Shown here piece by piece: positions 10,633 to 58,389 of a stretch of 64,000 bases of DNA. Position 1 is the stretch's first letter. Each line of letters starts with the position of its first letter. The stretch is from the sequence record PP680568.1; one strand, written 5' to 3'. The notes beneath the pieces are model-generated. The model had not been told where the DNA came from. It saw nothing but the letters and a program-made list of their open reading frames with translations, and searched no databases. The translations under genes and the position numbers were made by a program. Origin of the DNA: Enterococcus phage VRE9_2.

Positions 10633-10644
10633 AAGGAGAAATAT

Positions 10645-10938: not shown

Positions 10939-10959
10939 AAAGAAAGGAAGTTTTTTAAA

Positions 10960-11124: not shown

Positions 11125-11125
11125 T

Positions 11126-12878: not shown

Positions 12879-12934
12879 TTTTTTATATATAAAATGTTAA
12901 TATAAATATATAACAAAATAGGAGGACAAAAATT

Positions 12935-13747: not shown

Positions 13748-13825
13748 CCTAAGCTTTTTATTATCATTATTAATTTTCCCTTTTTATTATCTTTAGCAGA
13801 GATAAATAAAGAGAGGAGAATTAAC

Positions 13826-14056
13826 ATGAGAATCAATGCAGATAAAATAAGAGAATATAGAGAAGAGCATGGAATTAGCATCGATGAGATGGCTGAAATT
13901 CTTAATATAGATGGAGAAGCACTTTATGAATACGAAAGTGGAGTTCCATGGTTTGAAGAAGATGCCTTAACTATTTTTACGATTAATAATATTTGTGATA
14001 ATTTAGATTTTATTGCTATAGATGTTGATGAATTATTTGAAGAATATAATATTTAA
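13826..14056 (+). CDS. Small HTH-like protein
   Basis: 76 aa; ..HGISIDEMAEILNIDGEAL.. Confidence 0.45.
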   Translation: MRINADKIREYREEHGISIDEMAEILNIDGEALYEYESGVPWFEEDALTIFTINNICDNLDFIAIDVDELFEEYNI

Positions 14057-42633: not shown

Positions 42634-43803
42634 ATGAAATTATCACGACTAACTCAGGAAGATGTTATTAAAATTATAGAAAGCACTCCAAGAACACAAC
42701 TTGAAAGACGAGGATCTGAAGAAGGCTTTACATTAGGATTTATTCTTAATAAATTAGCTCGTAGTATGGTAGTGGCAGAAACGCAAGAAGAATTTTCTAA
42801 TCTTAGAACTAATGCAGATGGATTCTTAACTGGAGAAGAACGGTATAGTGAATCTACTGGTTTCTATATCATATCTGAAAAAGAGGTTGATGGAAATTAT
42901 ATTAGTATTAGTCAATCTGAAAATATCTCTAATTTAATTTTGTATCCTCAACTTTATACTCGTGAAGAAGCCCAAGTAATTGGAATGCGTTTGCGTACAG
43001 CGATTAATGATTTATTGTCTTATAGCTCTAGTCTTACAGCAGACACAAAAGTAGATCCATATGCAATCGTTCAAAAAGGATTATTAAATTATCTAATGCC
43101 TAAAGAGGCTCGAGTTATCTCAAGCGCTTATGAATATATGTATAATAATCTAACAGACAAAAAGATTGGAGACGTTGTTAGTCCTTTCTATCTATCTGAA
43201 GAAGTGCGTGCAGGAGCTCCATTCTCTGTTAAGAAATCATTAGAAAAGATTGACCCTAATTTCGAACTGAAGAATCGTATTGGCTTATTTGCAATCTGGT
43301 CATGGTCTCAACTATTCACCGCTATCGAAGAAAATGGTTGGGCAGGTTCACCTACGTTAAATGACCTAGGTGTTGATTCAGACTTTATCCAAGAAACACT
43401 TGGAAAATTTGATGAAGATTTGAAGAAACATATTGTGGAAATGCAATACGTATATACTTCACGTAAATATTTGGGTTATGAATACCTACGTGATAATCTA
43501 ACTAAATATCAATCCCCTACGAAGATCGGTCCGTTTGAATATGGAATGGCAACTGTTTATAGTGGGACTACTGGAGCTTATATTTTAGTATCTGTTCGAG
43601 GTAAACATACATTCTCTAACCCTCGACACATGGAAGGATTCCTTCAACCTGCGACTTACGAAGAAGCAGTTGATGACCTAACTATTGGAAATATTATTTC
43701 AACTGAACCTTATAACCAAGACAAGATTGTCTTTGAGAAAGCAAGCAATAGTGTAGCTCGTTATATCTTAAACAATCTAAAAACCATTGAAGAAGAAGAA
43801 TAA
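42634..43803 (+). CDS. Hypothetical protein (389 aa)
   Basis: Long ORF with RBS; strong terminator AAGGACCCCTCGTGGGTCTTTTTTTG at 43808-43833. Confidence 0.6.
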   Translation: MKLSRLTQEDVIKIIESTPRTQLERRGSEEGFTLGFILNKLARSMVVAETQEEFSNLRTNADGFLTGEERYSESTGFYIISEKEVDGNYISISQSENISNLILYPQLYTREEAQVIGMRLRTAINDLLSYSSSLTADTKVDPYAIVQKGLLNYLMPKEARVISSAYEYMYNNLTDKKIGDVVSPFYLSEEVRAGAPFSVKKSLEKIDPNFELKNRIGLFAIWSWSQLFTAIEENGWAGSPTLNDLGVDSDFIQETLGKFDEDLKKHIVEMQYVYTSRKYLGYEYLRDNLTKYQSPTKIGPFEYGMATVYSGTTGAYILVSVRGKHTFSNPRHMEGFLQPATYEEAVDDLTIGNIISTEPYNQDKIVFEKASNSVARYILNNLKTIEEEE

Positions 43804-43989
43804 AGGTAAGGACCCCTCGTGGGTCTTTTTTTGTATTAGTCAGGATAATTTATCCTCTCTGTTTTATTATAACATTTTATACAGAAAAAATCAAGGGGTG
43901 CTGAGTTTTAGGAAAAAATCCTGGCTTTACGAGGCAAGCCTTTAACGTGGCAAAAATCTAGCGTGGTGGTCAGCATTAGGCTGGGTTCC

Positions 43990-44230
43990 GGCCGTGCGCG
44001 ACCGGCCAAAAAATAACACCCCATTATGAGAGAATTCTAATTTTCACAAATTAAAATAACGGTTTTGGGATTTTGGATTTTTATTCATGTTATTGAATAT
44101 TAATTCAAGAAGCTGAAAAGCCCGTCATATCAACGTTTTGGGGCGGTGTTATTTTATAAATTAAGTTTTTTCTGTTATTTTATGTTTTTTAGATAACAAG
44201 AGAGTTTTAATTTTTCACAAACTATTATTA
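43990..44230. repeat. Repeat-rich noncoding region: AAAATAACAC / GTGTTATTTT motifs plus GC hairpin GGCCGTGCGCGACCGGCC
   Basis: Multiple copies of ATAACAC and its complement within 250 bp of AT-rich noncoding DNA. Confidence 0.5.
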
Positions 44231-44378
44231 AAAAATAACAAAAACATTATTAGAAATTTCTAATTTTCTAATTTTGAGAAAAAATTGATTTTCAGAAAAT
44301 TTCATGAAAACTTTCAAAAATATTTTCATTTTCATAGATTAAAAAATAGTGAGATTTCTCTCACTATTTTCTTATTTC

Positions 44379-45137
44379 TTAATTTTGAAAACTTGCTTCA
44401 AAATCTTTCATGTTAATTTCAGAAATTTTTTCAGAATGAACTTTCGTAGGGATACGCCAACACATTCTATTAATTTTCCGATTCATTTTTTTGTGTTGTT
44501 TATAACACCATGCCATTATTGCCGTTTCTATATATACATCAGCTAGACCAGTATGTTCTTCTACAAAATCGGTTGTTTTCATCATCCAATTATAGGCTAC
44601 TTCTGCATTAGTTTTCAGATTGCCAGCTTTTGAGTAGTAACCATTTTCAAACGCCCACTTTGGAAAACTTTTTTGTGAAAAAATTGTTTGGCAAGCCATA
44701 TGCCAGATACAATTTATTTCTAAATTTTTTCCTACTTCATAAGGGAAGAAAAATGGATAATTTGTTAATTCTTGCCATGTATTATTTAAGGCTTTAACAA
44801 AATCAAAATAAGCGTTATATGCTGCTACCGTTTTGATATTGTATTTTTCTATAATGTTTAAAATAACTCTTCTTACATATCTAAAAGGCTTCACCTTCAT
44901 AATTCCTTGAGAAATTTTTTCACGATATAAAGGCAATTTTGTATAATAATAAGCGCTACGCATTAAAGCATCATCGTCAAAAATTTCTGAAATTGCGAAC
45001 GAATGTTCTTCATAGATATTGCCTTTTTTGTCAGCTACCACAAAGCCCACATCATAACATAATGGATTTTTTTCAACGTCGCCGGCTGTTTCTACATCTA
45101 ATACTAAAATATATTTTTTTCTTTTGTCAATTTTCAT
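44379..45137 (-). CDS. DnaQ-like 3-prime-5-prime exonuclease (DEDD family)
   Basis: ILVLDVETAGD.. Exo I motif; paralog of 49933..50664. Confidence 0.6.
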   Translation of the reverse strand: MKIDKRKKYILVLDVETAGDVEKNPLCYDVGFVVADKKGNIYEEHSFAISEIFDDDALMRSAYYYTKLPLYREKISQGIMKVKPFRYVRRVILNIIEKYNIKTVAAYNAYFDFVKALNNTWQELTNYPFFFPYEVGKNLEINCIWHMACQTIFSQKSFPKWAFENGYYSKAGNLKTNAEVAYNWMMKTTDFVEEHTGLADVYIETAIMAWCYKQHKKMNRKINRMCWRIPTKVHSEKISEINMKDFEASFQN

Positions 45138-45219
45138 GCTTACTTTTCCACCTTTTTAATAAAATATTTTTTTTGAAAAAATTAAAGGCTAGGTTTTTAC
45201 GCCTAGCCCTAGACGTTTC

Positions 45220-45621
45220 TTAGATAATTTTGTAGCCCACTTTTTTCTTGTCACTTGTTGCAATTCCTTTTTCTAAAATTCCTTGTTCTACTAGACCTTT
45301 TAAGCGTGGGGTCATTTTTTGCGGTGTGTAATCGAACTCTAAAGCTTCATTGACTTCTTGACTTGTGTAAAATGTTTCTGTGTCTGCTTCTTCAAAGAAC
45401 CATTCTTGAATTTTTTGCATATCTGCAATTTTTTCTTTATTGGTCTTGCTTTGGCTAGGTTTGCGGTTAGCGTTACGTTTTTGAGCTTGTTCGCCTTTTT
45501 CTACTACAAAATCAATGACTTCTTGTGGTGCTTTCACGTTTGCCAAGATACGAGCAACTTCTGCAAATTTTTCAGCTACGACTAGTTTTTCAAATTGTGT
45601 TTTTTCCATGATAAATTCCAC
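45220..45621 (-). CDS. Small protein of the six-member paralog family (MEFIMEKTQ.. N-terminus)
   Basis: C-terminal ..TPQKMTPRLKGLVEQGILEKG..KKKVGYKII. Confidence 0.55.
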   Translation of the reverse strand: MEFIMEKTQFEKLVVAEKFAEVARILANVKAPQEVIDFVVEKGEQAQKRNANRKPSQSKTNKEKIADMQKIQEWFFEEADTETFYTSQEVNEALEFDYTPQKMTPRLKGLVEQGILEKGIATSDKKKVGYKII

Positions 45622-45890
45622 CTTTTTAAAATTTTGTTAGTAAGTTGTTCCCTTACTACTCTTTAAGTATAAACGATTTTCAATTATTTTGCAAGTCTTT
45701 TTTTGCTTTATTAGAAAATTCTCATTTAAGCTTAAAGAGTAACAAGTGAACTTCCCTCTTAAGTATACCATACTTTTTTTAACTTTGCAAGTATAAAGTT
45801 TATTTATTTTTCAAAGAACTTTTTGCAATCTCTTTCCTTATCTCTAATACTATTATAATAAATTTGAAAAGAGATTGCAAGTATAAAGTT

Positions 45891-46517
45891 TTAAATAATT
45901 TTATCAATCGTAATTTTTTTGATGAGTGTTTCAAGTGTTTGTTTTGTTGGTTCTACTAATAAGCGATAATCAGCATGTTTAAATAATCCGTAATCGCTCG
46001 CAGTATCTCCCCAAGCCTCTATATAACTATATTCATTTGTATTTATATTCCACTGAATGCAGTCATCTTTTTGTGATTCTGAAAACATACCGTTAACCTT
46101 TCCAGTGAAACAATCGTCAGCTTTTAAATATTCTGTCGCATGATATGAACAACCTAAAAAGTTAGCTAAATGCTTAATTAGAAAATCGCTTGAGCCTGTA
46201 ACAAGAACAACTTCAAAGCCTTGTAAAATTTTTTCTTTTAAATCGTTTAAAGTTTCATACCAATTTTTTTCATCTTTCAAAAATTGAGAAACAAACTCTT
46301 TTGCGTGCATTTCTTTTTCTGTTTTTCCTGTTATCTCGTTACGATAGTTTTCAGCAACGGCAACAATCAAACTTTCATTCTTAACATCTTTTTTCCATGC
46401 CTTATAAGAACCGTCATCTTTGATAATTCCTTTTTCAATTAAAAAACCCGCATGAGATAAAACAACGCTCTTTCTTGTAAGTGTTCCGTCTACATCTGTT
46501 AAAATTAAATTTTTCAT
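45891..46517 (-). CDS. HAD-superfamily hydrolase (phosphatase, possibly nucleotidase)
   Basis: N-terminal LILTDVDGTLT (DxDGT motif I). Confidence 0.6.
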   Translation of the reverse strand: MKNLILTDVDGTLTRKSVVLSHAGFLIEKGIIKDDGSYKAWKKDVKNESLIVAVAENYRNEITGKTEKEMHAKEFVSQFLKDEKNWYETLNDLKEKILQGFEVVLVTGSSDFLIKHLANFLGCSYHATEYLKADDCFTGKVNGMFSESQKDDCIQWNINTNEYSYIEAWGDTASDYGLFKHADYRLLVEPTKQTLETLIKKITIDKII

Positions 46518-46619
46518 TTCTTTTATCCTCCCTTTATCTTATATACTTATTATAGGGGATAAACGATAAAAAGTAAAGCATTTTACACATTAAAATTATT
46601 AAAGTTTAATGAGAATTGT

Positions 46620-47310
46620 TTCTAATTTACACACAATTCGCCAGGCGTTATTTTATAATTAAATAACAGCTTTTCTTTGAACACATGTTATTTTATAAAC
46701 TTGTAAGCGCTTACAAACTGCGTCAGATCAAGCTTTCAATAGATTTTCAGAAATTTTCATTGTTGTTTCAATAACAAGCAAAAATTACATGTGAAATAAT
46801 TCACAAACATAAAATAACACCCAAGAGGAGAAAAAATAACACACTTTGACTTGTGCGCACATTCACATTCTCTTGCTCTCTTGGAATGAAAAGGCTGTGA
46901 AAGCTTGGTATAATAGGCTTTCTGATTGTGAAAAAATTCACATGCACGGACTTTTGGGATATTAAAATAACATTAAAAAACAATTAAATAACAAGCCAAA
47001 AACTTGACAGGGATAAAATAACACAGTAAAATGGCGCTCGCCAGCGAGCGGCCGAAAAATAACGTCCTCTATTTGTTATTTTATTCATTTCACAAACTTT
47101 AGTTTCAGGATTCTGTTATTTTATTTTTGAAAATCAGTTTTCAATTTATGAAAATGAAAATGAAAGCTTGATACATCAAGGTTTTGGGAACCTCGCCCCG
47201 CAATGTTATTTTATCTTCTTCCTTTTGGACTGTTATTTTATTTTATACATTTCACAAACTTCACTTTTAAAATAACACGTATTTCTTTGTGAAATTTTTC
47301 ACAAGTAAAA
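46620..47310. repeat. Noncoding repeat region: more than 12 copies of (A)AAATAACA(C)/GTTATTTTAT, one TGTAAGCGCTTACA palindrome (46702-46715), GC hairpin CGCTCGCCAGCGAGCG (47033-47048)
   Basis: Direct reading; no ORF above 60 aa except spurious 46801..46983. Confidence 0.55.
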
Positions 47311-47570
47311 TTAAAAAAAGATGAGAAAAATCTCATCTTTTATTTTTATGATAATCACTAAATTTTTTTAGCTCTGCTGTGTTAATAATATATTCATTAC
47401 ATAAATCTAATAGAAAATCTTCAAAACTTTCTTTTTCATTTCCTCTTGTCTCCCAAAGTCTTTCTAATCTTTTATACATCTTTTTATTACTTAAAATAAT
47501 CATTTAAATTCATTTCCTTTCCTTTACTATATATAGTATAACATGAAAATTTTTTCGTGTCAACTATTAT

Positions 47571-47822
47571 TTAAAAAATATTTTCTAGGTCATAATCAAC
47601 GCTATATTCAAAATCTGAATAGTCATTGATAACATCAACAAATTCAAAAAATTCAAATACCATTTTTTCAGCTGATTCAGAATCTAAATATCCATTCATT
47701 ATTTCATCAGTCATTTTTAATACTTTTTCAATTTTCCTAAGTACTTCCATAAGTTTCACTTTGTCGTATGTTTCAATCAGAAAATTTTGTCCTGTAGGCA
47801 TTTTTATAATTACATTTTCCAT
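47571..47822 (-). CDS. Small acidic protein (host-takeover-like array)
   Basis: 83 aa; own TTGACA-N17-TATAAT promoter upstream on minus strand. Confidence 0.5.
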   Translation of the reverse strand: MENVIIKMPTGQNFLIETYDKVKLMEVLRKIEKVLKMTDEIMNGYLDSESAEKMVFEFFEFVDVINDYSDFEYSVDYDLENIF

Positions 47823-47879
47823 TTAATTCATTCCTTCCTTAACTTTCTATAATTATTATATCAAGGAAAGGGCTGTTTG

Positions 47880-48182
47880 TCAACCCTTTTCCTCAATTTC
47901 TTTGATAATTCTTTTTTCATCTTCTGGTAACATTTGAATAACAGTTTTTACTACTATAGTTTTATCTGTTTCATTACAAACATATAAACGAGAACCAAAA
48001 ACCCACAATTTAAATTCATTCTCTTCATTTTTTGGCGTTTTCTTCCTTACGTTTTTAATTTGAAAATCATTAAGAATTGCCGAACGAACTTGTCTATTAT
48101 TCATTTGTTCTTTAGCTACTCTTTCTAAATAACGCTCTTTAGCGTGTTGTGTGATAATAACTTTTTTGGTGAATAAAAGCAT
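47880..48182 (-). CDS. Small protein (array member)
   Basis: 100 aa; promoter AAGGGTTGACT..N17..TATAAT at 48190-48245 (minus). Confidence 0.5.
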   Translation of the reverse strand: MLLFTKKVIITQHAKERYLERVAKEQMNNRQVRSAILNDFQIKNVRKKTPKNEENEFKLWVFGSRLYVCNETDKTIVVKTVIQMLPEDEKRIIKEIEEKG

Positions 48183-48240
48183 TTGTTACAACTCCTCTCT
48201 ATATTTTTATTATATATTATAAGGGTTGAAAAGTCAACCC

Positions 48241-48621
48241 TTAACTCTCAAAAAACTTTTTAGTAATTTTTTCTTTTACATTAATTTTTTCAATATTTTC
48301 TTTTGCTACGAAATCAGTTACATCGATACTATGGATTCTATGCTTATCATTGTCACTAATAAAATTATTCGACCCAAAAAGGTTATATATTTCTATTAAT
48401 TCATGGGCTTCTTTATCCTCAAAAAATTCAACTAGTCTATAGTCATATTCATTTTGAATTTTTCGTTTTCTTTTTGCGACTAAAGAACCTTTATAGTATA
48501 ATTTAATAGTCATATTATTAGTTAATAAGTTAAACTTTCCAGTATAAATGCAAGGTTCATCTACCCCAATTAGTTTTACTTTCTTTTCTTCAAATGTTTT
48601 AAAAATTTGCATTTCATTCAC
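48241..48621 (-). CDS. Small protein (array member)
   Basis: 126 aa. Confidence 0.5.
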   Translation of the reverse strand: MNEMQIFKTFEEKKVKLIGVDEPCIYTGKFNLLTNNMTIKLYYKGSLVAKRKRKIQNEYDYRLVEFFEDKEAHELIEIYNLFGSNNFISDNDKHRIHSIDVTDFVAKENIEKINVKEKITKKFFES

Positions 48622-48666
48622 TCCTTATTCTTTATACTATTATTATAACAGTTGGTAAAGGGTTTG

Positions 48667-49116
48667 TCAACCCTTTACCTTATATTTTTTAGGACTTCCT
48701 CCTAAGTCTTCTAAGTATCCTTTTTCTTTCATCTTTTTCAATCTGCTAGGTGTCTGGCGGTTTGTGTATTTGTCAGCTACCAGTAAATGAAAATCTTTAT
48801 TTTGAAAATACTCTTTACCACTAAAAGCAATTTTTACTACATTATTAAATAAGTTGTTAATTTCATCATCTGTAATTTTTGCCTTTGCATTTTTGGCTTT
48901 CTTGATTTCTTTTTGTTCTTTTTCAAAATCTGTTTTCTTGTCACTTTCAAACTTATCAAACTCTCGTAGCTCGATAGCTTCAGCAAGATTCAACTCTAAT
49001 TTTTCAACCATTTCATCAATTAGTTTCCAATCGTGAGAAGTAATCTTTTCGCCGTTAGAAAATGTTTCTTGCATATAACACCATTCCTTTCCTTTACTAT
49101 ATATATAGTATAACAT
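48667..49116 (-). CDS. Small protein of the six-member paralog family (C-terminus NRQTPSRLKKMKEKGYLEDLGGSPKKYKVKG)
   Basis: 149 aa; C-terminal 35 aa nearly identical to 7021..7389. Confidence 0.55.
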   Translation of the reverse strand: MLYYIYSKGKEWCYMQETFSNGEKITSHDWKLIDEMVEKLELNLAEAIELREFDKFESDKKTDFEKEQKEIKKAKNAKAKITDDEINNLFNNVVKIAFSGKEYFQNKDFHLLVADKYTNRQTPSRLKKMKEKGYLEDLGGSPKKYKVKG

Positions 49117-49144
49117 GTAAGTAAAAGGGAGTCAACCCTTTTAC

Positions 49145-49402
49145 TTAATTTTCTTTATTAAATTTTTCTAATCGTTTTAATAAAATTTTTCCATTTATTT
49201 TGGCTACTAATTTACCAATTAAACCGTTTGACATAGATAAATTTTTAAACCTTAAATGATAAAAATCACTTTTATTTTCTCCTTTCCTAAATTCATAAAC
49301 TAGCTTATCATTGAATATTTGATGATGAATAAAAATCTTTATTTCTGGGAAACTTTCAATAATATAATAATCTCCACCATTTACAAAAATATCTGTTTGC
49401 AT
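49145..49402 (-). CDS. Small protein (array member)
   Basis: 85 aa. Confidence 0.45.
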   Translation of the reverse strand: MQTDIFVNGGDYYIIESFPEIKIFIHHQIFNDKLVYEFRKGENKSDFYHLRFKNLSMSNGLIGKLVAKINGKILLKRLEKFNKEN

Positions 49403-49632
49403 TTAAATTCATTCCTTTCTTAACTTTCTATAATAAGTATAACAGATAAAACTAAAAAAATCAAATAATAAATACATGAGTTTTAGGATATTTTTTCTCA
49501 TTAAACTTTTAGAAAAAATTTTGATTTTTTTCTTGACATAGACCTAATTTTGTGGTAAAATTTCCGCCCGAAAACGGCAAATTTGTTCACTATTTCACAA
49601 GCCTTCAATATAAAAAAGATAGCCTTTTTAGG

Positions 49633-49881
49633 CTATCCCAAAATATGATCGTATAAGATATATAAGCTACCCCAACTATAAAGATAAAGAAAAATCAAAC
49701 TAATTACATTTTTAAAAGTGAAAACAAACCCAATAGAGAAAGAATAGATTGTAACAATTATTGGTGTAAAAATAAAAAATAATACTAGCAATATGACTGC
49801 AAGACCAACGAGCGCCACTATAATTTTTTCTTTCTTCTCTTGGGCTTTTCTTTTTCTTTTGTAACTTCTTGTTATTAGCAT
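49633..49881 (-). CDS. Small membrane protein (array member)
   Basis: 82 aa, hydrophobic core. Confidence 0.45.
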   Translation of the reverse strand: MLITRSYKRKRKAQEKKEKIIVALVGLAVILLVLFFIFTPIIVTIYSFSIGFVFTFKNVISLIFLYLYSWGSLYILYDHILG

Positions 49882-49932
49882 ATAATATCATTCCTTTCTA
49901 TAGTTATATTATAGCAAAGAAAAAGAGTTGTG

Positions 49933-50664
49933 TCAACTCTTTTTCTTATTTAAATTTTCTTCATTCACAATCCGCCACGCTTGAGGGTTAATAGAATAAG
50001 CATGGATAGGAATTTCTTTTTCTTGGTTCAATAGAGAATGTAAAATTTTTGTTTCGTCTATGCTATCTTGCAAAGCAGTATGCTCTTCAATGTAATTTGT
50101 ATCATTAAACAAAAATTTATAGGTTGCTTCTGCGCCGGTTTGATAGTTCCCTTTTTCTGTTAAAAGATTGTGAGTTTTTGCAAACTCTTTATATTCTGGT
50201 GTATTTAATACAGTATAAGCGGCTACGGGATAAATATCAATTAAAAAGAAATTATCAAAGAAATCAAAATCTTTTCCCGAAAAGAAGAAATGAGTTTTTG
50301 CAATTACACGAGTATCAAAGCCCAAGTTATAGGCGCCAACGTAAGCAACGTTATATTTTTTACAATCTTTTTTAAGTTGCCCGATAATGTTTGCCCACTT
50401 GCTAACAATAATTCTTTTTTCAAGTAATTTTGTAAAATATACTTTTCCATCAACTACATTTTCATCAATCAAGAAAGCACGTTTTTTATTCAATGCTTGA
50501 AATTTAAATTGTTCTACCATATAAGAACGTTCTACTAAAATATTGCCTTGTTTATCTGAAATAGCCCAACCAATATCGAAAACTGATTGATAAGGCATTC
50601 CCTCGCCCTCTTTTGTCGTTTCAGTATCTAAAATCAAAAATGTTTCTTGCATGTAATTTTCCAC
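49933..50664 (-). CDS. DnaQ-like 3-prime-5-prime exonuclease, paralog of 44379..45137
   Basis: FLILDTETTKEG.. Exo I motif; ..EEHTALQD.. Exo III-like. Confidence 0.6.
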   Translation of the reverse strand: MENYMQETFLILDTETTKEGEGMPYQSVFDIGWAISDKQGNILVERSYMVEQFKFQALNKKRAFLIDENVVDGKVYFTKLLEKRIIVSKWANIIGQLKKDCKKYNVAYVGAYNLGFDTRVIAKTHFFFSGKDFDFFDNFFLIDIYPVAAYTVLNTPEYKEFAKTHNLLTEKGNYQTGAEATYKFLFNDTNYIEEHTALQDSIDETKILHSLLNQEKEIPIHAYSINPQAWRIVNEENLNKKKS

Positions 50665-50745
50665 CTTTTCAATAAATTTATTTGTTCCTTAACTACTATT
50701 TAAGTATAACAAAAGGGCTTGAGCTTGTCAAGCCCTTTTACTAAC

Positions 50746-51192
50746 TTATTTCAATTTGTAAGCTACTTTTTTATCCTTTACAACTTTTTCAAATTCTTCA
50801 TTGTCTACTAATGGTTTCATGATTGCCGTTAATTTTTGAGGTGTAGCGCCAACAAGCCCAATCAATTCAGCAATTTCATTCAGTGTTAAGGCTGTTTCTG
50901 GTTCTAAGTCAAGAAATGCTTTTCGTACTTTATCCATGTTTTCAGCTTTTTCTTTTGCTGTTTTGCTTACGCCTTTTTTGCCACGTTTTGCCTTGTCTTG
51001 TTTTACTTGTTGCATGTGCATAGCTTCCAATTTTTCAGTTAATTCTTCTGGTTGAAATTCTACTACAGATTTCATTTTATCTGTAATATTAGTTGGCACT
51101 TCAATTGCTAGGTCTTTCCATGCTTGTGCTAAAATAGTTGCGACTTCCAATGCTTGTGCTTTTGTAATTTGTTTTTCCATGATAAATTCCAC
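50746..51192 (-). CDS. Small protein of the six-member paralog family (MEFIMEKQI..)
   Basis: C-terminal ..ATPQKLTAIMKPLVDNEEFEKVVKDKKVAYKLK. Confidence 0.55.
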   Translation of the reverse strand: MEFIMEKQITKAQALEVATILAQAWKDLAIEVPTNITDKMKSVVEFQPEELTEKLEAMHMQQVKQDKAKRGKKGVSKTAKEKAENMDKVRKAFLDLEPETALTLNEIAELIGLVGATPQKLTAIMKPLVDNEEFEKVVKDKKVAYKLK

Positions 51193-51343
51193 CTTTTTAA
51201 AATATTTTTTTGTAACAATTTCTTATTACATTCTTAGTATAAAACATTTTGATTTGTTTGTCAAGTGTTTTATACTAATTTCTAACAAGAAATTTTTTAT
51301 TGCTTTCTTTATACTCTTATTATAGAGTATTGAGAAAGGCTTG

Positions 51344-51547
51344 TCAAGCCTTTTCCCAATTTTCTTTTAAGAAAGTAACAACGCTATAACTTGTAATAGT
51401 TGTTAAAGCAATAAGCAACAAGCTTTGAATAGAGAAGAAACCAGTGTACAAAATAGCTTGATAAGTGAAGTAGAACGGTACTAAAATACCTCCTGCAATT
51501 AAAATTCCTACAAAAACGATTAATAATACTAATTCTGATAATTTCAT
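51344..51547 (-). CDS. Small membrane protein
   Basis: 67 aa two TM. Confidence 0.4.
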   Translation of the reverse strand: MKLSELVLLIVFVGILIAGGILVPFYFTYQAILYTGFFSIQSLLLIALTTITSYSVVTFLKENWEKA

Positions 51548-51616
51548 TTTAAAACTTCCTTTCCTTTTCTATATATTAAGTATATCATTGTTAAAATGGT
51601 TTGTCAATACTTTTGG

Positions 51617-51775
51617 CTAAATAATTTCAAATTTTCTATTTTTATATTCTTCTTTGAAATCTTGGATAGCTTGCTCATAAGTATCAGCTTCAACTAAAAT
51701 TTCTTCAATTTTAGGATAACCACTATCCAAACTAATTTCATCTAAGAATTTAACAAGTAAAATATATTTATTCAT
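51617..51775 (-). CDS. Small ORF (52 aa), not in track
   Basis: MNKYILLVKFLDEISLDSGYPKIEEILVEADTYEQAIQDFKEEYKNRKFEII; preceded on minus strand by TTGACA-N17-TATAAT. Confidence 0.35.
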   Translation of the reverse strand: MNKYILLVKFLDEISLDSGYPKIEEILVEADTYEQAIQDFKEEYKNRKFEII

Positions 51776-51792
51776 TTCTTTCATTCCTTTCC

Positions 51793-51933
51793 TTATCTTG
51801 ATTCTATTATAACACGACTTAATTCATCTGTCAACACTTTTATCATTTTATCTGCTTTTTCTTTTCGGTCAATTTCTTTTTCTCTTTGGTTCTTTCTAGC
51901 AATCAATTTCAATCTTAAATATTTGTTTTTCAT
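51793..51933 (-). CDS. Small basic ORF (46 aa), not in track
   Basis: MKNKYLRLKLIARKNQREKEIDRKEKADKMIKVLTDELSRVIIESR. Confidence 0.3.
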   Translation of the reverse strand: MKNKYLRLKLIARKNQREKEIDRKEKADKMIKVLTDELSRVIIESR

Positions 51934-51948
51934 TTTAATCATTCCTTT

Positions 51949-52149
51949 CTATAATTCTATATTAACAGAGTTTAAAGCTTCTGTCAAGCATTTTATTAAA
52001 TTTTTTGCATTTTCTGGTGTCAGATAAACTTCTGAATAAAAGTCTTTCTTATCATCAGTAACTAAAATAATTCTAGGTACTTCATTAGTTGAAATATTAA
52101 TTTCACAATTATCTACCTCATTAGGTTTAATAGTTTTATCATATTTCAT
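51949..52149 (-). CDS. Small protein (array member)
   Basis: 66 aa. Confidence 0.4.
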   Translation of the reverse strand: MKYDKTIKPNEVDNCEINISTNEVPRIILVTDDKKDFYSEVYLTPENAKNLIKCLTEALNSVNIEL

Positions 52150-52333
52150 TTTTGTTCCCTCCTTAACTTTCTATAATTATTATAGCATAGACCAAGAGGA
52201 AAGACAATAATAAAACACTGTAATTTTAATTAGAATTTTCTCATTTTGTATGAAAGATGAAAGCGCTTTCATTTTATGGTTCCCTCCCTCCTTACAGTTT
52301 CAGTATAACAAAAAAATAAGGGTTTGTCAACCC

Positions 52334-52741
52334 TTATTTTTCTTTTAATTCTACTTTATAAGTTGTATTTTCACCAATCATAAAAAATAAAATCTTTGCT
52401 GTTTTAGGATATTCATATTTTGTAATAGTTACTTTATTTTCTTGCTGATTCTTTTTAAAGCTTAAAATTTGACTTGCTTCAATACTTTTTGTTCCTGTTT
52501 CAGTTGCATAAGTGAAAACTGTTTGGCTGCTATTCATTTTATGAGTTTCTTCTGAAAAATTTCCACTAATAAACGTTTCTTGTGTGGTACTAACTTCAGT
52601 CTGTTTATCACTATATAGCATAAGACCACCAAAGAAAATCAAACCCCCTAATATAAAACTTCCTAAAAACTTAAACCCTGCATAGGTATCAAGTTTCCAA
52701 TCTAACCAACACATAGCAATAAACATAATAATATAAATCAT
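52334..52741 (-). CDS. Membrane-anchored protein (array member)
   Basis: 135 aa, two N-terminal TM segments. Confidence 0.5.
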   Translation of the reverse strand: MIYIIMFIAMCWLDWKLDTYAGFKFLGSFILGGLIFFGGLMLYSDKQTEVSTTQETFISGNFSEETHKMNSSQTVFTYATETGTKSIEASQILSFKKNQQENKVTITKYEYPKTAKILFFMIGENTTYKVELKEK

Positions 52742-52784
52742 TCTTACAACCTTCTTTCTTTATTTATATATTTATTATAACAAG

Positions 52785-52830
52785 TAAAAAAGGGTTTGTC
52801 AACCCTTTTACTTAAATTCATTATATAAAT
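52785..52830 (-). promoter_or_regulatory. Representative array unit: hairpin AAGGGTTTGTCAACCCTT carrying -35 TTGACA on minus strand, then 17-nt spacer and TATAAT
   Basis: Minus-strand reading GGGTTGACAAACCCTTTTTACTTGTTATAAT; equivalent units at about 47861, 48222, 48646, 49124, 49921, 50715, 51330, 51595, 51820, 51965, 52308, 53262, 53740, 54310, 54740. Confidence 0.6.
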
Positions 52831-53233
52831 TTTCTAATTCAATTTCTTTCTTTTTCTGTTTCTCTCTTTCTTCCACATAATAAAACATATCTCTTACAAA
52901 AGGTAAGTCAATCAATCTGAGATTTCCTTTTTTATATTCTGATAACATTAATAGATTTTCTTTTTCTGTTGTTTCATCCCATTTATCTTTATAACTATAT
53001 TTCACAGAATAAATAATTTCTACTTTCTTTTTTCTTGAAAACATTTTTTTCTTTTCTACAAAATTCATTAATGAGATTGTAAAATATTCAGTTCGCCAAT
53101 CTCTAGCAATAAGAACATTTTCAATTATAAGAAATTTATATCCCTCTATCTCTTCATGTAATTCTACTATCGCAGTTTTTTCATCTAATCTCTTGATATA
53201 TTCTTTTTGTTCTACTGTAAGCATTTCATTCAC
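52808..53233 (-). CDS. Small protein (array member)
   Basis: 141 aa. Confidence 0.5.
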   Translation of the reverse strand: MNEMLTVEQKEYIKRLDEKTAIVELHEEIEGYKFLIIENVLIARDWRTEYFTISLMNFVEKKKMFSRKKKVEIIYSVKYSYKDKWDETTEKENLLMLSEYKKGNLRLIDLPFVRDMFYYVEEREKQKKKEIELENLYNEFK

Positions 53234-53285
53234 TCCTTATTCTTTATATTATTATCATAACAGAAAGAGATAATCCTGTCAAGGA

Positions 53286-53612
53286 TTATCTTCTTAAAAT
53301 TTTTGCAACAAACACATCTCGTCTTATTTGTTCGGCTTGCTCAAGATATATTAATTCAAACGAATTTTTATAGATACGATGATTTTTTATATCTAAAGTC
53401 TTTTGTGTTGAGAAAAAAACATCTAAAGCATTTTTTGAAGCTGTTATTATATCATTATCATAGAAACCTTCTTTTAATTGCTCTTTTATATATTCTGCAA
53501 AATCTTTATGAAGCGTTGTAATCAAAAGATGATGATTCATCAAACGTTTTTCAGTTCTTTCAACCTCTTTCTTCATTTCGTTAATTTTTTCTTGCATTTC
53601 TTTTTCTAGCAT
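53286..53612 (-). CDS. Small protein (array member), coiled-coil-like N-terminus
   Basis: 108 aa. Confidence 0.45.
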   Translation of the reverse strand: MLEKEMQEKINEMKKEVERTEKRLMNHHLLITTLHKDFAEYIKEQLKEGFYDNDIITASKNALDVFFSTQKTLDIKNHRIYKNSFELIYLEQAEQIRRDVFVAKILRR

Positions 53613-53781
53613 GTTTAATCACTCCTTATTCTTTATAATATAATTATATCACAGTTATAGGATAAGTCAATAGAAAAGCGCCAAAAAGTTTAAAAATATT
53701 TTTCCAATGAAAGCGCTTACATTTCTTTCCTCTCTTGGTACAATATTATTGTAGCACAAAAAAAGGACTTTTGCAAGTCCT

Positions 53782-54267
53782 TTATACTAATTCTTTTCCG
53801 ATTATACTTCTTTTTAATACGTCAATTTTTTCTTTCATTTCTTCACTATCTAAAAATTTATTCAAGTTTTCTTCATTAAAATTCTTAGATAATTTAAGAG
53901 CCAAAATTTCGCTATCTGTCAATGGATAATTATGATTGTTTATTCTTCCGCCAACTACTGAAAAGCATACCTGTTCATTAGTATCAGAATCAATTAAATA
54001 TATATCTAAAATTGAAACTTGAAGCCATGAAATAGCAGAATCAGCGTTTCTTACAATTTTTTTAGAAACTTCTGGGTTTGCTCGAAACATTATTACATCA
54101 GTAACTCTATTATTTATTGTTGTTACTGTTACTTTTTTATCCATTAGTTTTGGGTCATGGTTATATATTCTTCTTCTGTACCACGCCTCATGAATACTAT
54201 AACCAACCATAAATAATAAAATACCTATTGAGGCAACTAAAATAATACTACAAAAAATTATTTTCAT
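53782..54267 (-). CDS. Membrane-anchored protein (array member)
   Basis: 161 aa, N-terminal TM. Confidence 0.5.
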   Translation of the reverse strand: MKIIFCSIILVASIGILLFMVGYSIHEAWYRRRIYNHDPKLMDKKVTVTTINNRVTDVIMFRANPEVSKKIVRNADSAISWLQVSILDIYLIDSDTNEQVCFSVVGGRINNHNYPLTDSEILALKLSKNFNEENLNKFLDSEEMKEKIDVLKRSIIGKELV

Positions 54268-54338
54268 TTAAAAATCATTCCTTTCTTTTAACTATAATTA
54301 GTATAACATGGTTAGGGGTTGTTGTCAACCCCTAACAC

Positions 54339-54701
54339 TTATCTTTTTCTTTCCCAGAAATATTTTTCAAGAAAATCGCAAAAATCTGTTTTTTCATCAA
54401 TTTTCCACACTATTTTAATTTCATTAGTATTATTAAGTAAGCAAATTCTTTCAGTTATAAAGCCAACAAAGTCATGAAATTTATTTGTGTCACTTGTTCG
54501 TTGTTTATTTCTAAAAAGCTTTTTAGGAAGTTCTACATAATTACATCTTTCAGGCAACCAACTAGTATAAGCTTTTAAATATAAACTTTTTTCGTTGTTT
54601 TCACTTCTAAACATTTCTTCATTATATTGTGACTTTGTTATTACTTGTATAGGATATTTTTCATTAGTTTCTAAATTGACTATTTCAATAATCTCTATCA
54701 T
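54339..54701 (-). CDS. Small protein (array member)
   Basis: 120 aa. Confidence 0.45.
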   Translation of the reverse strand: MIEIIEIVNLETNEKYPIQVITKSQYNEEMFRSENNEKSLYLKAYTSWLPERCNYVELPKKLFRNKQRTSDTNKFHDFVGFITERICLLNNTNEIKIVWKIDEKTDFCDFLEKYFWERKR

Positions 54702-54752
54702 ACATTATCATTCCTTTCTATATATCTAATATATCATAGTTTCGGGACGGTG

Positions 54753-54989
54753 TCAATAAATATTTTCATTTAACCATTTAACAAAATCATTATACACTTG
54801 ATGAATATCAAATCTATTTTGAAATTGCATATTAAAATCATATTTATTTCGTAACCATTCACTGAGTGCATAGCTATCAACTAAAGGGCTAGTAAGTTCT
54901 TTCTTATATTTAGATAGGTACTTTCGTTCTAGGTCATATTCTAAAGCAAATTCTAAAATCTCAATAGCTTCAAGAGTCTCGTTATTCAT
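54753..54989 (-). CDS. Small protein (first gene of the leftward array)
   Basis: 78 aa. Confidence 0.45.
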   Translation of the reverse strand: MNNETLEAIEILEFALEYDLERKYLSKYKKELTSPLVDSYALSEWLRNKYDFNMQFQNRFDIHQVYNDFVKWLNENIY

Positions 54990-55019
54990 TTTGAATACCT
55001 CTTTTCAATAGGTTTTGGG

Positions 55020-56300
55020 GCTATTCATCTAATCCCTATAAATAGTATAATATATAAAACCCTAATTGTCAAATGATTTTTAACATTAGACAAAATATTT
55101 TTATATACATTATGTGTGCATATATACATTCGATAACAGATGTTATTTTAATAGACTATCGAGAGATGTAAGCGCTTACAAAAGATTTACTTAAACAGAT
55201 GAATTGAAAGCGCTTTATTTTACGTTTTAAGAGCTTTTCATATTATTTGGCATAATTATCTATTAAGCATTATAAAACCCAAGAGAAGAGCAAAGAAGTA
55301 TATTGCGGACGTTGTTATTGTCTTTTATTAAGGCGCTATAATAAATAGTCTTATATAAAATAACATTTATCAGTTATTATAACAAGTGTTATTTTTGGTG
55401 GCAGAGATGTGATGAGCTAATATATTGTGAAACATTTCACGCATGTACAGTCATTCATATAATAATTTATTCATATGTATTGATGAACAGATGAACATAT
55501 ATTCATATGTATTCACTGCTAGTCTGTGAACGTTGTCACAGATGTAAGCGCTTACAACTCATTGACGCAAGGTGTCAAGTAAAATTACTTGGCGCACATA
55601 TGTTCGGTTGGCTCCCAGCAACTTGATGAATAACAAAGGTTATTTAATTTTATAGTTCGGCATTTTAAATAACAAGTGTTATTTAAATATACTTAAATAC
55701 TTGAATAGATATACATATGAACATATATTCATATATTGTGGCAGTAGGTACAGATGGACTAGACCAATCATAACTCTAAACGATTGTGAAATATTTCACA
55801 AGGATTCCACTCAATGTTAGAAATTAGTTGATATTATTAAATAACAAGTGTTATTTTTGGTGGCAGTAACGCAGATGAGCGTTATTTAATAAACAAGGGA
55901 GTTAGTGGCAAGGGATGCACAGGTCGTTATTTAATTAGGTCAATAAGTTTTTGTAACAGTAGTAAAAGGCTTGTTATCATTAGGGTTTGGGCGTTTTCAG
56001 GAATGGAATTGAGATTGGAATTCGATTTACGATTGTTATTTTAGCCCATGGGGGTTGGGTTCATGCGGGTGTTATAGGCTGTTATTTTTTCTGAAATAGC
56101 TTTTGGTGGGGATGGTTTTGGGATTTGTGAAAATATTCACAAGTCAATCAGGGAAGCCGCGGCAACAACACTTAATCAGAGCTTCAAAATTGAAAATCGC
56201 ATGACTATCTTTTTTCTACAACGTCTCACGGTTGGGGTAGATTTATCTATAGTTCTGCCCAGTTTTTATATTGATACCAGAGTAAATGTAAATAAAGGAG
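55020..56300. repeat. 1.3-kb noncoding region with operator-like palindromes: TGTAAGCGCTTACA (55167-55180, 55544-55557), AAATAACAAGTGTTATTT (55667-55684, 55839-55856), 24-bp direct repeat AACAAGTGTTATTTTTGGTGGCAG (55381, 55843), many GTTATTT half-sites; candidate origin/regulatory hub
   Basis: Direct reading; no credible ORF. Confidence 0.6.
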
Positions 56301-56309
56301 GAGTTCGAC

Positions 56310-56510
56310 ATGGCAAAACACGTCATAGAAGAAGAGCTTCTACATGGTTCGGGCTTTAACGTCGTAACTAATGGAGAAGTAGAGATTACCGCTGATAACG
56401 CTGAGCGGATCTTAAAATTTATTACCGATGGCACAATTGATATTGACGTTGTTAATCATAATATTAAATTTAGCTCTCGAGTTCCAGTATTCACAACATT
56501 AGATTGGTAA
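56310..56510 (+). CDS. Hypothetical small protein upstream of tail fiber
   Basis: 66 aa, GGAGGAG RBS. Confidence 0.5.
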   Translation: MAKHVIEEELLHGSGFNVVTNGEVEITADNAERILKFITDGTIDIDVVNHNIKFSSRVPVFTTLDW

Positions 56511-56526
56511 AGGAGGATGTGAATAA

Positions 56527-58389
56527 ATGATTAAGTTTCACAAGGTTAGCGGCAAACCCGCTAAAGTAGAATCTGGCGATGAAAATATTTGGTTTTCTTA
56601 TCCAAACGGTATTTATGTTGCCGATAATCAAGGCAACCCACGACTAATTTCCCCAGGGAAAATGATTGGCGATGCTGTTCCTGTTGGAGTACCAAACGAA
56701 CCAGGTCTATTTTATTATAATACATCAAATAAGAAAAACTATATTTCTACCGCAGAAAAATGGGTTGAAATTGGTACTGGTAGTATTCCAGGGACAGGAG
56801 GAGGCAGCAATATCGCTGGCAATGTTTTAATCGACGATGCCGCCGATAATTATACTTCGGTCGATGTTGAGGGCGCTCTTGCTGAGATTGCCGAAAAATT
56901 CCCATGGTACTTTGGTAAAATGCAATTAAAAGATTTTAATGGTGACATTAATACTCTATTAAAATCCACTGAAAATTATATTACAACTAGCGCCACAAAT
57001 CGCCCCAATGACAAAACAGGTTGGCTCATCCAACGTAAGGCTTCTAATAACAATACTTATGGATTCGTCATTGGTGATGATGGCACCGCCCAAACAAGGG
57101 TCAACAATAAGTTCACCCCACTAGCGGCCCAAGCCGACCTCGCCAAACTACAAGATACTGTTGATTCCTCTCTTGGAGAATTAAAGGTAAATGTAGGGAA
57201 AGGATTAGCTTCTGATGGAAAGACATTAGCAAATGGGCAAACTATTTCATTGGCACAAGATATTTTAGATAAGATTGATGCTGCCGGAGCTGGAGCTAAT
57301 TTTGTTAAAAAAGCTGGAGATACTATGACTGGTCCTCTAGTAATGAAAGCTGGTTCTGGACAAGTTTCTCAAGTACAATTTAGTAGTACAGGTTCTGCTA
57401 ATAATGTAGCAATATTGGATGATCCAAGAGGGACGTCCAAGAATTCTCCTTATGGAGGGAAAGAAGGCGGTTCTCGTTTTAGAATTGCTAATGTGAAAAA
57501 GAATTTCGATATTATGTCGGCTTATAGTGATGGGTCGGTTGATATCCATGCAAATGGTCCTCGTGCGGTATTTGGCAATGCAAGCACTAATGGACGAACT
57601 ACTATTTTAAATAATAATAATAGTGGTGGGACTTCAGTTGATATTGTTGCGCCTTTTAGTGACGTTCCATTATTTGTTAAGGGTAAGAATGGACAATTAC
57701 ATTATAAGGTTAATGGTGGAATGAACAGTTTGCTTTCTGGTAACAGTAGCAGTGGTCGTAAAAATCTACGTATTGCTGGTATGGGAAGTAATTCTGAATT
57801 AGCTACATTGTATTTTGAAGCATGGAATACAAGAGCTAAAGGTAAAATTCATTCTGGTTCGGCTATTAATGTTGGTTTTAACCATGAGACTTCTAAGGGT
57901 ACTGGTGATGGGGATGTATGTCTACGTATTTTCCCAAGAAAAGCTGGGCTTAATGGTGAGGCAAATGCTTTGAGAAACTATGCTGTATTATATTATGAGC
58001 AATATAGTCAGACTTTAGTTGTTGACTCATTCAAGGGTAATGCAAACTTTACAAGCAACGAACGTAATAATTTTGTACGTTTATCTTCTGATGGTTTTAT
58101 TACACGTTCTTCAGTAAAATATAAGAATCCTATTAAGAAATTTGAAGAAGATGCTTTATCAAAAGTTAAAGAAGTTACACCCGAATTATATGCCTATAAA
58201 AATGATCCAAAACAAAGTACTCAATTAGGATTTATTATTGAACATGGTCTTCCCCAAGAGGTAGTAGAGATGGAAGGGCGAGGCGTGAACGCTTATGCGC
58301 TGACAGCTTACTTATGGAGAGCAACGCAACAACTGTCTCAAGAAGTAGATTCATTAAAAGAAGAATTGAAAAATTTAAGAAATAGTTAA
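56527..58389 (+). CDS. Tail fiber protein with probable C-terminal intramolecular-chaperone (S74-like) domain
   Basis: 620 aa Gly/Ser/Asn/Thr-rich fibrous composition; C-terminal ..LGFIIEHGLPQEVVEMEGRGVNAYALTAYLWRATQQLSQEVDSLKEELKNL. Confidence 0.6.
   Translation: MIKFHKVSGKPAKVESGDENIWFSYPNGIYVADNQGNPRLISPGKMIGDAVPVGVPNEPGLFYYNTSNKKNYISTAEKWVEIGTGSIPGTGGGSNIAGNVLIDDAADNYTSVDVEGALAEIAEKFPWYFGKMQLKDFNGDINTLLKSTENYITTSATNRPNDKTGWLIQRKASNNNTYGFVIGDDGTAQTRVNNKFTPLAAQADLAKLQDTVDSSLGELKVNVGKGLASDGKTLANGQTISLAQDILDKIDAAGAGANFVKKAGDTMTGPLVMKAGSGQVSQVQFSSTGSANNVAILDDPRGTSKNSPYGGKEGGSRFRIANVKKNFDIMSAYSDGSVDIHANGPRAVFGNASTNGRTTILNNNNSGGTSVDIVAPFSDVPLFVKGKNGQLHYKVNGGMNSLLSGNSSSGRKNLRIAGMGSNSELATLYFEAWNTRAKGKIHSGSAINVGFNHETSKGTGDGDVCLRIFPRKAGLNGEANALRNYAVLYYEQYSQTLVVDSFKGNANFTSNERNNFVRLSSDGFITRSSVKYKNPIKKFEEDALSKVKEVTPELYAYKNDPKQSTQLGFIIEHGLPQEVVEMEGRGVNAYALTAYLWRATQQLSQEVDSLKEELKNLRNS

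Follow-up and report, generated by a model that had tools for sequence, protein, structure and literature searches.

The DNA analysed here is a 64,000 nt window of the genome of Enterococcus phage VRE9_2 (PP680568.1), to which all coordinates refer, and its minus strand carries a leftward array of small genes. This array is probably an early gene block, transcribed by the host RNA polymerase as monocistronic units, in which composite terminator-promoter cassettes predicted from the sequence follow the same logic as the promoter-early stem-loops (PeSLs) of T4-like phages. A previous description of this DNA (the sequence-only reading) had proposed a leftward run of about 20 small genes. This is borne out, as 19 open reading frames (ORFs) of 46-239 aa were found on the minus strand between 47333 and 54989; the true span of the array is from the first promoter, at 55072, to the final terminator, at 47316, and the same direction of transcription continues to around 44379.

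In the arrangement we propose, the block would be built from a dispersed regulatory cassette of 60-85 nt. From 5' to 3', a copy would begin with the closing codons of the upstream gene and its stop codon, continue through a hairpin with a GC core, which has an A-run on one side and a T-run on the other, and then a near-consensus sigma-A promoter of the extended -10 type, and finish in a short leader whose ribosome binding site (RBS) is strong. The -35 hexamer would be lodged in the hairpin's loop and the stem next to it. The RNA hairpin would end or attenuate the upstream transcript within the spacer of the next promoter, protecting the 3' end thus generated, and the next transcript would start about 30 nt further on, without the hairpin. 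As one transcript would end in the spacer and the next begin beyond the hairpin, most genes would form separate monocistronic units, strongly transcribed and insulated from read-through. Their mutual resemblance may also make the cassettes junction points, at which related phages acquire, lose, exchange or move genes.

Promoter density and geometry

Sites of the form TTGAC[AT]-N16-18-TAnnnT are concentrated in the array, with 20 on the minus strand between 47563 and 55072 versus three in the other 56 kb of the same strand. Seventeen sites, within 7.6 kb, match at least 11 of the 12 consensus positions, whilst first-order Markov simulations of the region gave a mean of 0.42 such sites and a maximum of three, an enrichment of approximately 40-fold. 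The 17 nt spacer that the sequence-only reading attributed to each unit is present in 18 of the 20 promoters listed in Table 1, the remaining two departing from it, and 16 of the 20 have the TG of an extended -10 element. Perfect TTGAC(A/T)-N17-TATAAT promoters had been thought to recur at least 15 times but number only seven, most of the others having TATACT as the -10 hexamer.

The position of the promoters relative to the genes is similarly regular. In 14 of the 20 cases the start codon lies 55-61 nt from the -35 hexamer, a clear RBS being present in each, and the stop codon of the upstream gene falls between 3 nt inside the -35 hexamer and 15 nt before it, five of the upstream genes ending with a TGA embedded in the T-TGA-CA of the next -35. 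From their type, and from this only, we infer that the promoters fire early with host sigma-A. Adjoining the array is a homologue of phage sigma factors (phrog_5767, E = 1e-100), served by a perfect promoter of its own at 58428, in keeping with a change-over from the sigma factor of the host to that of the phage.

Hairpins enclosing the -35 hexamer

Rather than being a feature of every unit, as had been supposed, a strong hairpin encloses the -35 hexamer in 12 of the 20 promoters; the stem is perfect and 8-14 bp long in 11 of these, and imperfect in the cassette at 47883. Folding energies range from -12.8 to -18.9 kcal/mol, as opposed to -3.4 to -6.4 kcal/mol for shuffled flanks, with at most 0.7% of shuffles reaching the observed value, whilst ten control promoter-like sites elsewhere in the window have energies of -1 to -5.6 kcal/mol. 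The other eight promoters are hairpin-less (Table 1).

The arms of the stems vary from cassette to cassette with their complementarity kept, the pairs including GGGTT/AACCC, GGCTT/AAGCC, GGACTT/AAGTCC, GAGTTG/CAACTC and AGATAATCC/GGATTATCT; AATCC is also among the differing arm sequences. Relatives that are 6-9% divergent exhibit four compensatory pair changes, one each in the cassettes at 52330 and 48670 and two in that at 49936. Among 16 cassettes of one geometry, both sides have changed in 8 of the 11 stem pairs, a count that is illustrative only because the set was chosen for pairing and the comparison is hence partly circular.

The hairpin as a probable 3' element of the upstream gene

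Each hairpin promoter in the window directly follows the end of a gene; no hairpin is seen at the promoter that opens the array, or at the second member of any of the three tandem pairs. In order to quantify this association, 95 non-redundant strong promoters were pooled from the window and seven relatives, which include phages with exonuclease homologues 57-67% identical to that of the array as well as Phass-1, at 25% identity; a gene end was defined as that of an ORF of at least 40 codons. Thirty-nine of the 41 hairpin promoters are found at an ORF end, compared with 15 of the 54 that are hairpin-less (odds ratio 51; Fisher p = 8e-12, which is optimistic because the sampled phages are related and not independent). 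In the window alone, the corresponding figures are 10 of 10 and 3 of 7. It is therefore with the 3' end of the upstream gene, rather than with the promoter, that the hairpin belongs.

The junction between the winged-helix and exonuclease genes is syntenic in several relatives. The composite present there in the window is also found in L032, L034 and L037; in L030, L035 and L036 the same junction has a stand-alone, GC-rich, terminator-like hairpin, with a short T-run (TTTT, as in AAATTTTAAAAAA), followed by a hairpin-less TTGACT promoter. The shape of the two stand-alone terminators of the array (49616-49639 and 47316-47341) points the same way, as they share the composite build of an A-run, a GC stem, a 4 nt loop and a T-run. 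The gene-end link, the covariation of the stems and this substitution of a terminator provide comparative support for the proposal, made in the sequence-only reading, that one hairpin can double as a terminator, or another 3' element, for the gene upstream and as the -35 region of the next. The hairpins are predicted to terminate transcription, for which the T-runs after six of the 12 stems and the substitution at the syntenic junction are indirect evidence.

Several points weigh against such an interpretation, to which the relatedness of the sampled phages should be added. All 12 composites have GC-cored stems, and in six of them there are 5-7 T residues in the following 8 nt; in the other six there are only 3-4, as opposed to seven at both of the stand-alone terminators. 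With such poor U-tracts, several of the hairpins may only attenuate transcription or stabilise the RNA. The T content of the spacers differs modestly between hairpin and hairpin-less promoters (0.42 versus 0.35, p = 0.03), and the promoters at 54756, 51607 and 47563 are located directly after a stop codon yet have no hairpin.

The same U-tracts, poor in around half of the hairpins, are what might be expected if the hairpins were not terminators at all, but processing sites or blocks to 3' exonucleases that set the stability of segments of long read-through transcripts; the gene-end link and the stem covariation would fit this equally well. Such an explanation seems unlikely, given the six hairpins with T-rich sequence past the stem and the relatives in which a stand-alone hairpin and TTTT are substituted at the syntenic junction. 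Furthermore, the near-consensus promoter possessed by each gene would be redundant in a read-through operon, and the stem-loops of PeSLs terminate in vivo as well as rrnB T1 (PMC2839356).

Alternatively, the hairpin could be part of the promoter, with a DNA cruciform or hairpin presenting or hiding the -35 hexamer in a manner sensitive to supercoiling or dependent on single-stranded DNA. Phage N4, which has hairpin promoters, provides a model, and it would be in keeping with this that the -35 is always in the loop or at its edge, and that identical geometry occurs in unrelated phage lineages. However, promoters of the same consensus without a gene end upstream are hairpin-less, as is seen for the promoter that opens the array, the second member of each tandem pair and 39 of the 54 hairpin-less sites in the pooled sample; hairpin-less promoters also replace composites at the same junction, and the -35 and -10 hexamers are standard double-strand sigma-A elements with an extended TG. 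A role of this type is therefore very unlikely.

Less plausible still is that the palindromes are operators at which a dimeric phage regulator shuts off the early promoters, even though they are perfect inverted repeats centred on the -35 and the array encodes winged-helix proteins that might act in this way. The arms differ by cassette and change by compensatory pairs, retaining complementarity and not sequence, and a sequence-conserved palindrome described below (TGWAAGCGCTTWCA) is a much better operator candidate; this function was rejected for the -35 palindromes. That the arrangement results incidentally from a base composition rich in AT (genome GC is 30%, and a lenient scan found 111 weak promoter-like matches where 69 were expected) and from ordinary terminators lying beside ordinary promoters in short spacers is barely credible, being contradicted by the enrichment of strong sites over the simulations, by the association with gene ends, by the fixed register of hairpin and -35, and by the conservation of the design down to Phass-1, with its 25% identical exonuclease homologue, and in independent lineages.

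Cassettes as repeats and possible junctions

The window belongs to a VRE9_2-like Enterococcus phage with a genome of approximately 140 kb. A 7.4 kb stretch of it matches the Enterococcus phages VRE9_4, H1, VRE9_3, EF1 and EF5, all of which are unclassified Caudoviricetes with genomes of 134-142 kb, at 91-94% identity, yet only 59-83% of the stretch is covered; the region is therefore mosaic. One of the encoded proteins shares 100% identity with a protein of VRE9_2. Within it, the cassettes form a dispersed repeat, with 10 copies of 64 nt sharing 60-78% identity and sub-families of 22-49 nt sharing 84-100%, those in the leaders (5' untranslated regions) being up to 95-100% identical over 22-38 nt.

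When the window was compared with these five close relatives, using homology blocks of at least 200 nt and at least 85% identity, the block ends clustered into 24 positions. Fifteen of these lie in the 83 nt cassette intervals that represent 21% of the region (p = 1.6e-5), although selection for intact genes would also place breakpoints between genes, so that the clustering fits cassette exchange without proving it; a further reservation is that the ends of BLAST blocks are pulled towards shared cassette sequence. Most of the remaining ends are found at stand-alone terminators or no more than about 20 nt from a start codon. The gene at 49145-49402 occupies a different slot in VRE9_4 and H1, and the number of genes in the array is 6-10 in the distant relatives L034-L037 versus 19 here. 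Recombination presumably occurs within the cassettes.

A 240 nt block without ORFs (49412-49653) is 94% identical in VRE9_3 and EF1 despite differing flanking genes. It holds an antisense TTGACA-N17-TAAAAT site, on the plus strand at 49533; a small antisense RNA starting from this site was considered but rejected, as the fold is unremarkable (z = -2.5) and the strand lacks a U-tract.

Comparison with known systems

PeSLs consist of a strong sigma-70 promoter together with a stem-loop terminator (Arbiol et al. 2010, PMC2839356; Comeau et al. 2014, PMC4122927). In one subclass the stem-loop overlaps the -35, and the stems of phage nt-1 have the form A3-4G3-loop-C3T3-4; PeSLs flank ORFans in hyperplastic regions, where they mark the sites of indels and replacements, and have been shown by reporter assays in RB49 and phi1 to possess both termination and promoter activity (PMC2839356, PMC4122927); the excision of mini-circles by recombination between cassettes is counted among the features of the class. 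The array displays all of the sequence-level features of PeSLs. These features are a near-consensus promoter for the host sigma factor, fused to a stem-loop and ending, on the 3' side, in an RBS and start codon; a stable stem-loop overlapping the promoter after the upstream stop codon, in 12 of the 20 promoters in this case; stems made up of an A-run, a G-run, a loop, a C-run and a T-run; mutual similarity of the copies over 60-100 nt; and small ORFans in a hypervariable region, in which the indels, replacements and displacements between close relatives end at cassettes.

There are also differences. The lineage is an unrelated one, with a Gram-positive host and sigma-A promoters of the extended -10 TG type, and a single geometry dominates, in which the loop holds the -35 and the upstream gene stops in the 5' arm or within TTGACA, whereas in RB49 and phi1 the stem-loop is mostly between the -35 and -10 or over the -10. 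The searchable literature, which does not extend to all journals, describes PeSLs only in T4-type phages, cyanophages and jumbo phages, and contains none for phages of Gram-positive hosts. The cassette is a tidy instance of a known design, and involves no new mechanism.

The sequence-only reading likened the array to SPO1's host-takeover module, which, as cited in PMC6873191, comprises early genes that are small and in which both the sigma-A promoters and the RBSs are strong. In terms of organisation this holds: both are dense sets of small genes, early in SPO1 and putatively early here, with strong sigma-A promoters and RBSs, in large lytic phages of Firmicutes that encode their own sigma factors, and in both many products are of unknown function, some being membrane proteins. 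It does not extend to protein homology, as the best match in a tblastn search of 22 proteins against bases 1-14000 of SPO1, for homology to gp36-60, had an insignificant E value of 0.038, or to the hairpins, since none of the five sites in the SPO1 module that best match the promoter consensus has a GC hairpin at the -35, the sequence upstream of them being rich in A. Moreover, SPO1 arranges its genes as operons; in the present array, a separate promoter serves almost every gene. The SPO1 module is situated in the long terminal redundancy, and its products act to shut off macromolecular synthesis or cell division in the host; in the present lineage, no terminal repeat was shared by the ends of the H1 record, and the public records start at arbitrary points.

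The morons of lambdoid phages, which are units of promoter, gene and terminator (PMC2839356), are likewise independent transcription units of one gene each, which a genome can acquire, but they lack shared flanking cassettes and are usually isolated and often antisense to the DNA around them, whereas the units described here are tandem, co-oriented and bounded by a repeated composite.

RNA polymerase left on the DNA after intrinsic termination can restart at a nearby promoter, as shown only in single-molecule assays with the E. coli polymerase on artificial templates (PMC6978380, PMC6978322, PMC11364550). This provides a possible rationale for placing a promoter directly on a terminator: a polymerase releasing its RNA at the hairpin and T-run would be standing on the spacer and -10 of the next promoter, where it might re-bind sigma and restart without leaving the DNA, such that a few captured host polymerases would be relayed through the early genes. 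By this analogy, the overlap could couple termination to re-initiation by the same polymerase, an idea we consider rather doubtful.

Occurrence of the design in other phages

Within the whole genome of H1, strong promoters peak in the 90-100 kb bin, with 18, compared to 0-7 per strand in any other 10 kb bin, and 10 of these 18 have hairpins. Four more composites, at 15263, 23018, 26263 and 28090, lie in the replication-gene region of H1 and have a second geometry, in which a terminator hairpin (AAAGTCAAG-loop-CTTGACTTT) has the -35 TTGACT as its 3' arm and is followed by the T-run TTTTTATTTTT. A protein-based search of IMG/VR for the locus returned only one near-identical contig, and the distant relatives were instead taken from the ENA and Logan assemblies. 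Phass-1, of a clade using genetic code 15, has 23 strong promoters in 18 kb, several of them with hairpins in which TTGACA separates a G-run from a C-run.

An exact search of IMG/VR for AAGGGTTGACAAACCCTT found 20 contigs, from around eight lineages of 34-49% GC, and in 18 of them a -10 hexamer is present at the right distance. In one such contig, L006, hairpins accompany 13 of the 27 strong promoters present in 12.4 kb; in another, L015, they accompany five of 19 promoters. L015 also contains two copies of the same exonuclease family, indicating that it is a distant relative of this module.

Gene content and a candidate operator

The sequence-only reading noted a DnaQ exonuclease, winged-helix proteins and membrane proteins among the products, and all three identifications stand. 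In the 239 aa protein, the residues D9, E11, N109, D113, H191 and D196, which correspond to the Exo I (DxE), Exo II (NxxxD) and Exo III (Hx4D) motifs of DEDDh enzymes, are invariant in 16 sequences down to 26% identity, and the paralogue at 44379-45137 has the DEDDh residues as well. It has no match in Pfam and no sequence match in the PDB; the AlphaFold2 model (pLDDT 91.7) has an RNase H-like fold, and nearly all of its top Foldseek matches in the PDB are DEDD-type 3'-5' exonucleases (best E 4e-5), these being DEDDh enzymes or the exonuclease domains of DNA polymerases, and including DinG, ERI3, DnaQ, 3'hExo, Orn, TREX1 and ExoI. For the 144 aa protein, a sequence search of the PDB gave chance matches only; in the model, residues 73-143 (pLDDT 85-89) have exactly the element order H1-S1-H2-H3-S2-wing-S3, and almost all top PDB matches are winged-helix structures, with an rmsd of 2.2-3.2 A over approximately 66 residues but E values of only 0.02-0.1. 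Its paralogue at 45220-45609 likewise terminates in a winged-helix domain. Four array products have transmembrane-like segments. None of the array proteins has a match in Pfam, even at E = 1, and in PHROGs they match only families of unknown function, plus a weak match to an exonuclease subunit, or no family.

A two-gene unit, consisting of a winged-helix gene followed by a DEDDh exonuclease gene, occurs twice, at 44379-45609 and 49933-51180, the pairs of proteins being 34% and 26% identical, and a gene for a HAD-family hydrolase follows the array. Two copies of this pair are also present in the distant relatives and in L015, beside genes for HAD-family hydrolases or 5'-deoxyribonucleotidase-like proteins, so that, as a speculation, an early function combining nuclease with nucleotidase may be suggested. 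The second winged-helix gene has, upstream of it at 45694-45900, three tandem TTGCAA-N17-TATA(A/C)T promoter-like sites with a repeated word, AACTTTATACTTGCAA; in EF1 this is a duplication junction, with blocks ending at 45891 and 45785.

A palindrome of 14-16 bp, TG[TA]AAGCGCTT[TA]CA, is found seven times in the window, where 0.67 occurrences are expected, and always between 43.1 and 55.6 kb. Its sequence is conserved in the relatives with 57-67% identical exonuclease homologues, and in the 138 kb genome of H1 six of the seven copies are in the divergent control region and the early array. In the array, it is located around 45 nt past the start of the hairpin promoters at 53776 and 52330, in units that lack an ORF (one reads ATG-TAA) and are followed by a second promoter. 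This conserved palindrome looks like an operator, possibly one recognised by the winged-helix proteins.

Table 1. Predicted features of the small-gene array and associated elements. Handles beginning with L denote other phage genomes or contigs.
Feature	Position	Strand	Details
Whole early-gene array (putative)	47316-55072	-	20 sigma-A-type promoters, 19 small ORFs, 12 composite hairpin-promoters, 2 stand-alone terminators
First array promoter	55044-55072	-	TTGACA-N17-TATACT; no upstream gene, no hairpin
Hairpin-less promoter	54728-54756	-	upstream stop is the TGA of TTGACA
Composite cassette	54300-54336	-	hairpin 54311-54336, 11 bp stem, loop ACAA, -18.9 kcal/mol; -35 TTGACA 54323-54328; -10 TATACT 54300-54305; upstream stop 11 nt before -35
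Composite cassette	53748-53783	-	hairpin 53762-53783 (9 bp), then T7; -35 TTGCAA; -10 TACAAT; drives ORF-less unit containing AAGCGCTT palindrome
Hairpin-less second promoter of tandem pair	53643-53670	-	TTGACT-N16-TATAAT; nearest gene end 112 nt away
Composite cassette	53254-53291	-	hairpin 53268-53291 (10 bp, AGATAATCC/GGATTATCT); -35 TTGACA; -10 TATGAT
Composite cassette	52774-52809	-	hairpin 52788-52809 (AAAAGGGTT-GACA-AACCCTTTT), then T-run; perfect TTGACA-N17-TATAAT
Composite cassette	52302-52341	-	hairpin 52312-52341 (13 bp), then T-run; -10 TATACT; drives ORF-less unit with palindrome ATGAAAGCGCTTTCAT; A-U to G-C compensatory change in L025
Palindrome ATGAAAGCGCTTTCAT, candidate operator	52257-52272		second copy 53706-53723; further copies of the 14-16 bp palindrome 55167-55180, 55205-55218, 55543-55556, 46702-46715, also 43122-43129
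Hairpin-less second promoter of tandem pair	52179-52207	-	TTGTCT-N17-TATAAT
Perfect promoter, hairpin-less	51806-51834	-	within 3' end of 46 aa ORF
Hairpin-less promoter	51579-51607	-	10 nt past stop codon
Composite cassette	51319-51353	-	hairpin 51335-51353 (8 bp, GGCTT/AAGCC); upstream stop is the TGA of TTGACA
Hairpin-less second promoter of tandem pair	51236-51264	-	upstream of winged-helix gene
Protein of 144 aa, C-terminal winged-helix domain	50746-51180	-	paralogue at 45220-45609
Composite cassette between winged-helix and exonuclease genes	50703-50739	-	hairpin 50711-50739 (12 bp)
DEDDh (DnaQ-like) 3'-5' exonuclease-fold protein, 239 aa	49933-50652	-	paralogue at 44379-45137
Composite cassette	49908-49947	-	hairpin 49917-49947 (14 bp); exonuclease gene stop is the TGA of TTGACA; two independent compensatory changes, G-C to U-A in VRE9_4 (L001), A-U to G-C in L002
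Stand-alone intrinsic terminator after 82 aa membrane-protein gene	49616-49639	-	stem, then 7 T in 8 nt
Composite cassette	49107-49147	-	hairpin 49118-49147 (12 bp); loop is the entire TTGACT hexamer
Composite cassette	48642-48679	-	hairpin 48654-48679 (11 bp); stop is the TGA of TTGACA; A-U to G-C compensatory change in L002, L025
Composite cassette	48209-48243	-	hairpin 48220-48243 (10 bp, TAAGGGTTGA-CTTT-TCAACCCTTA); -35 TTGACT in 5' arm and loop
Composite cassette	47855-47897	-	imperfect hairpin, -18.3 kcal/mol; stop is the TGA of TTGACA
Last array promoter, hairpin-less	47535-47563	-
Stand-alone terminator closing array	47316-47341	-	looks bidirectional

Genome context and annotation

The window as a whole has a GC content of 30% and contains 17 tRNA genes, along with genes for NrdD, an endolysin, PhoH and the phage sigma-factor homologue. 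As judged from GC skew, the array is part of a minus strand block of approximately 44.4 kb to 55.1 kb; the divergent plus strand block encodes a 620 aa tail-like protein, the sigma factor and PhoH. Three non-coding stretches, at 55100-56250, 46560-47330 and 43850-44340, are dense in AAATAACA/TGTTATTT words, some arranged as AAATAACAAGTGTTATTT palindromes, and also rich in GTGAAnnnTTCAC palindromes and CAGATG words; these iteron-like sequences might mark an origin or a partition site, or serve as a regulatory hub. An Rfam scan of 43000-57000 in E-value mode returned only two chance matches to miRNA models.

The public PHANOTATE annotations of VRE9_4 (L001) and VRE9_3 (L003) contain many ORFs of 30-40 aa, on both strands, across the cassettes and non-coding DNA, which are almost certainly spurious; neither record annotates any regulatory features. 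The literature search identified no paper on accession OP534061, and none describing the VRE9 phages.

Significance

With these observations the concept of PeSLs, in which composite promoter/terminator cassettes serve both to drive small early genes and to shuffle them, reaches beyond T4-like phages and their Gram-negative hosts to an Enterococcus phage lineage of 135-142 kb genomes that has barely been characterised, and also to distant gut phages (Phass-1) and several metagenomic lineages. Were the coupling of termination to re-initiation true, the same geometry in unrelated phage lineages would represent selection for polymerase hand-off. The cassette provides an annotation rule for these genomes, the current records of which call many spurious ORFs of around 30 aa and no regulatory sites, and the cassettes themselves would form a set of compact, strong and insulated expression cassettes for Firmicutes. 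Phages of this type are being isolated against vancomycin-resistant E. faecium, and the approximately 19 separately promoted early ORFans of the array are candidates for host-takeover or anti-defence functions.

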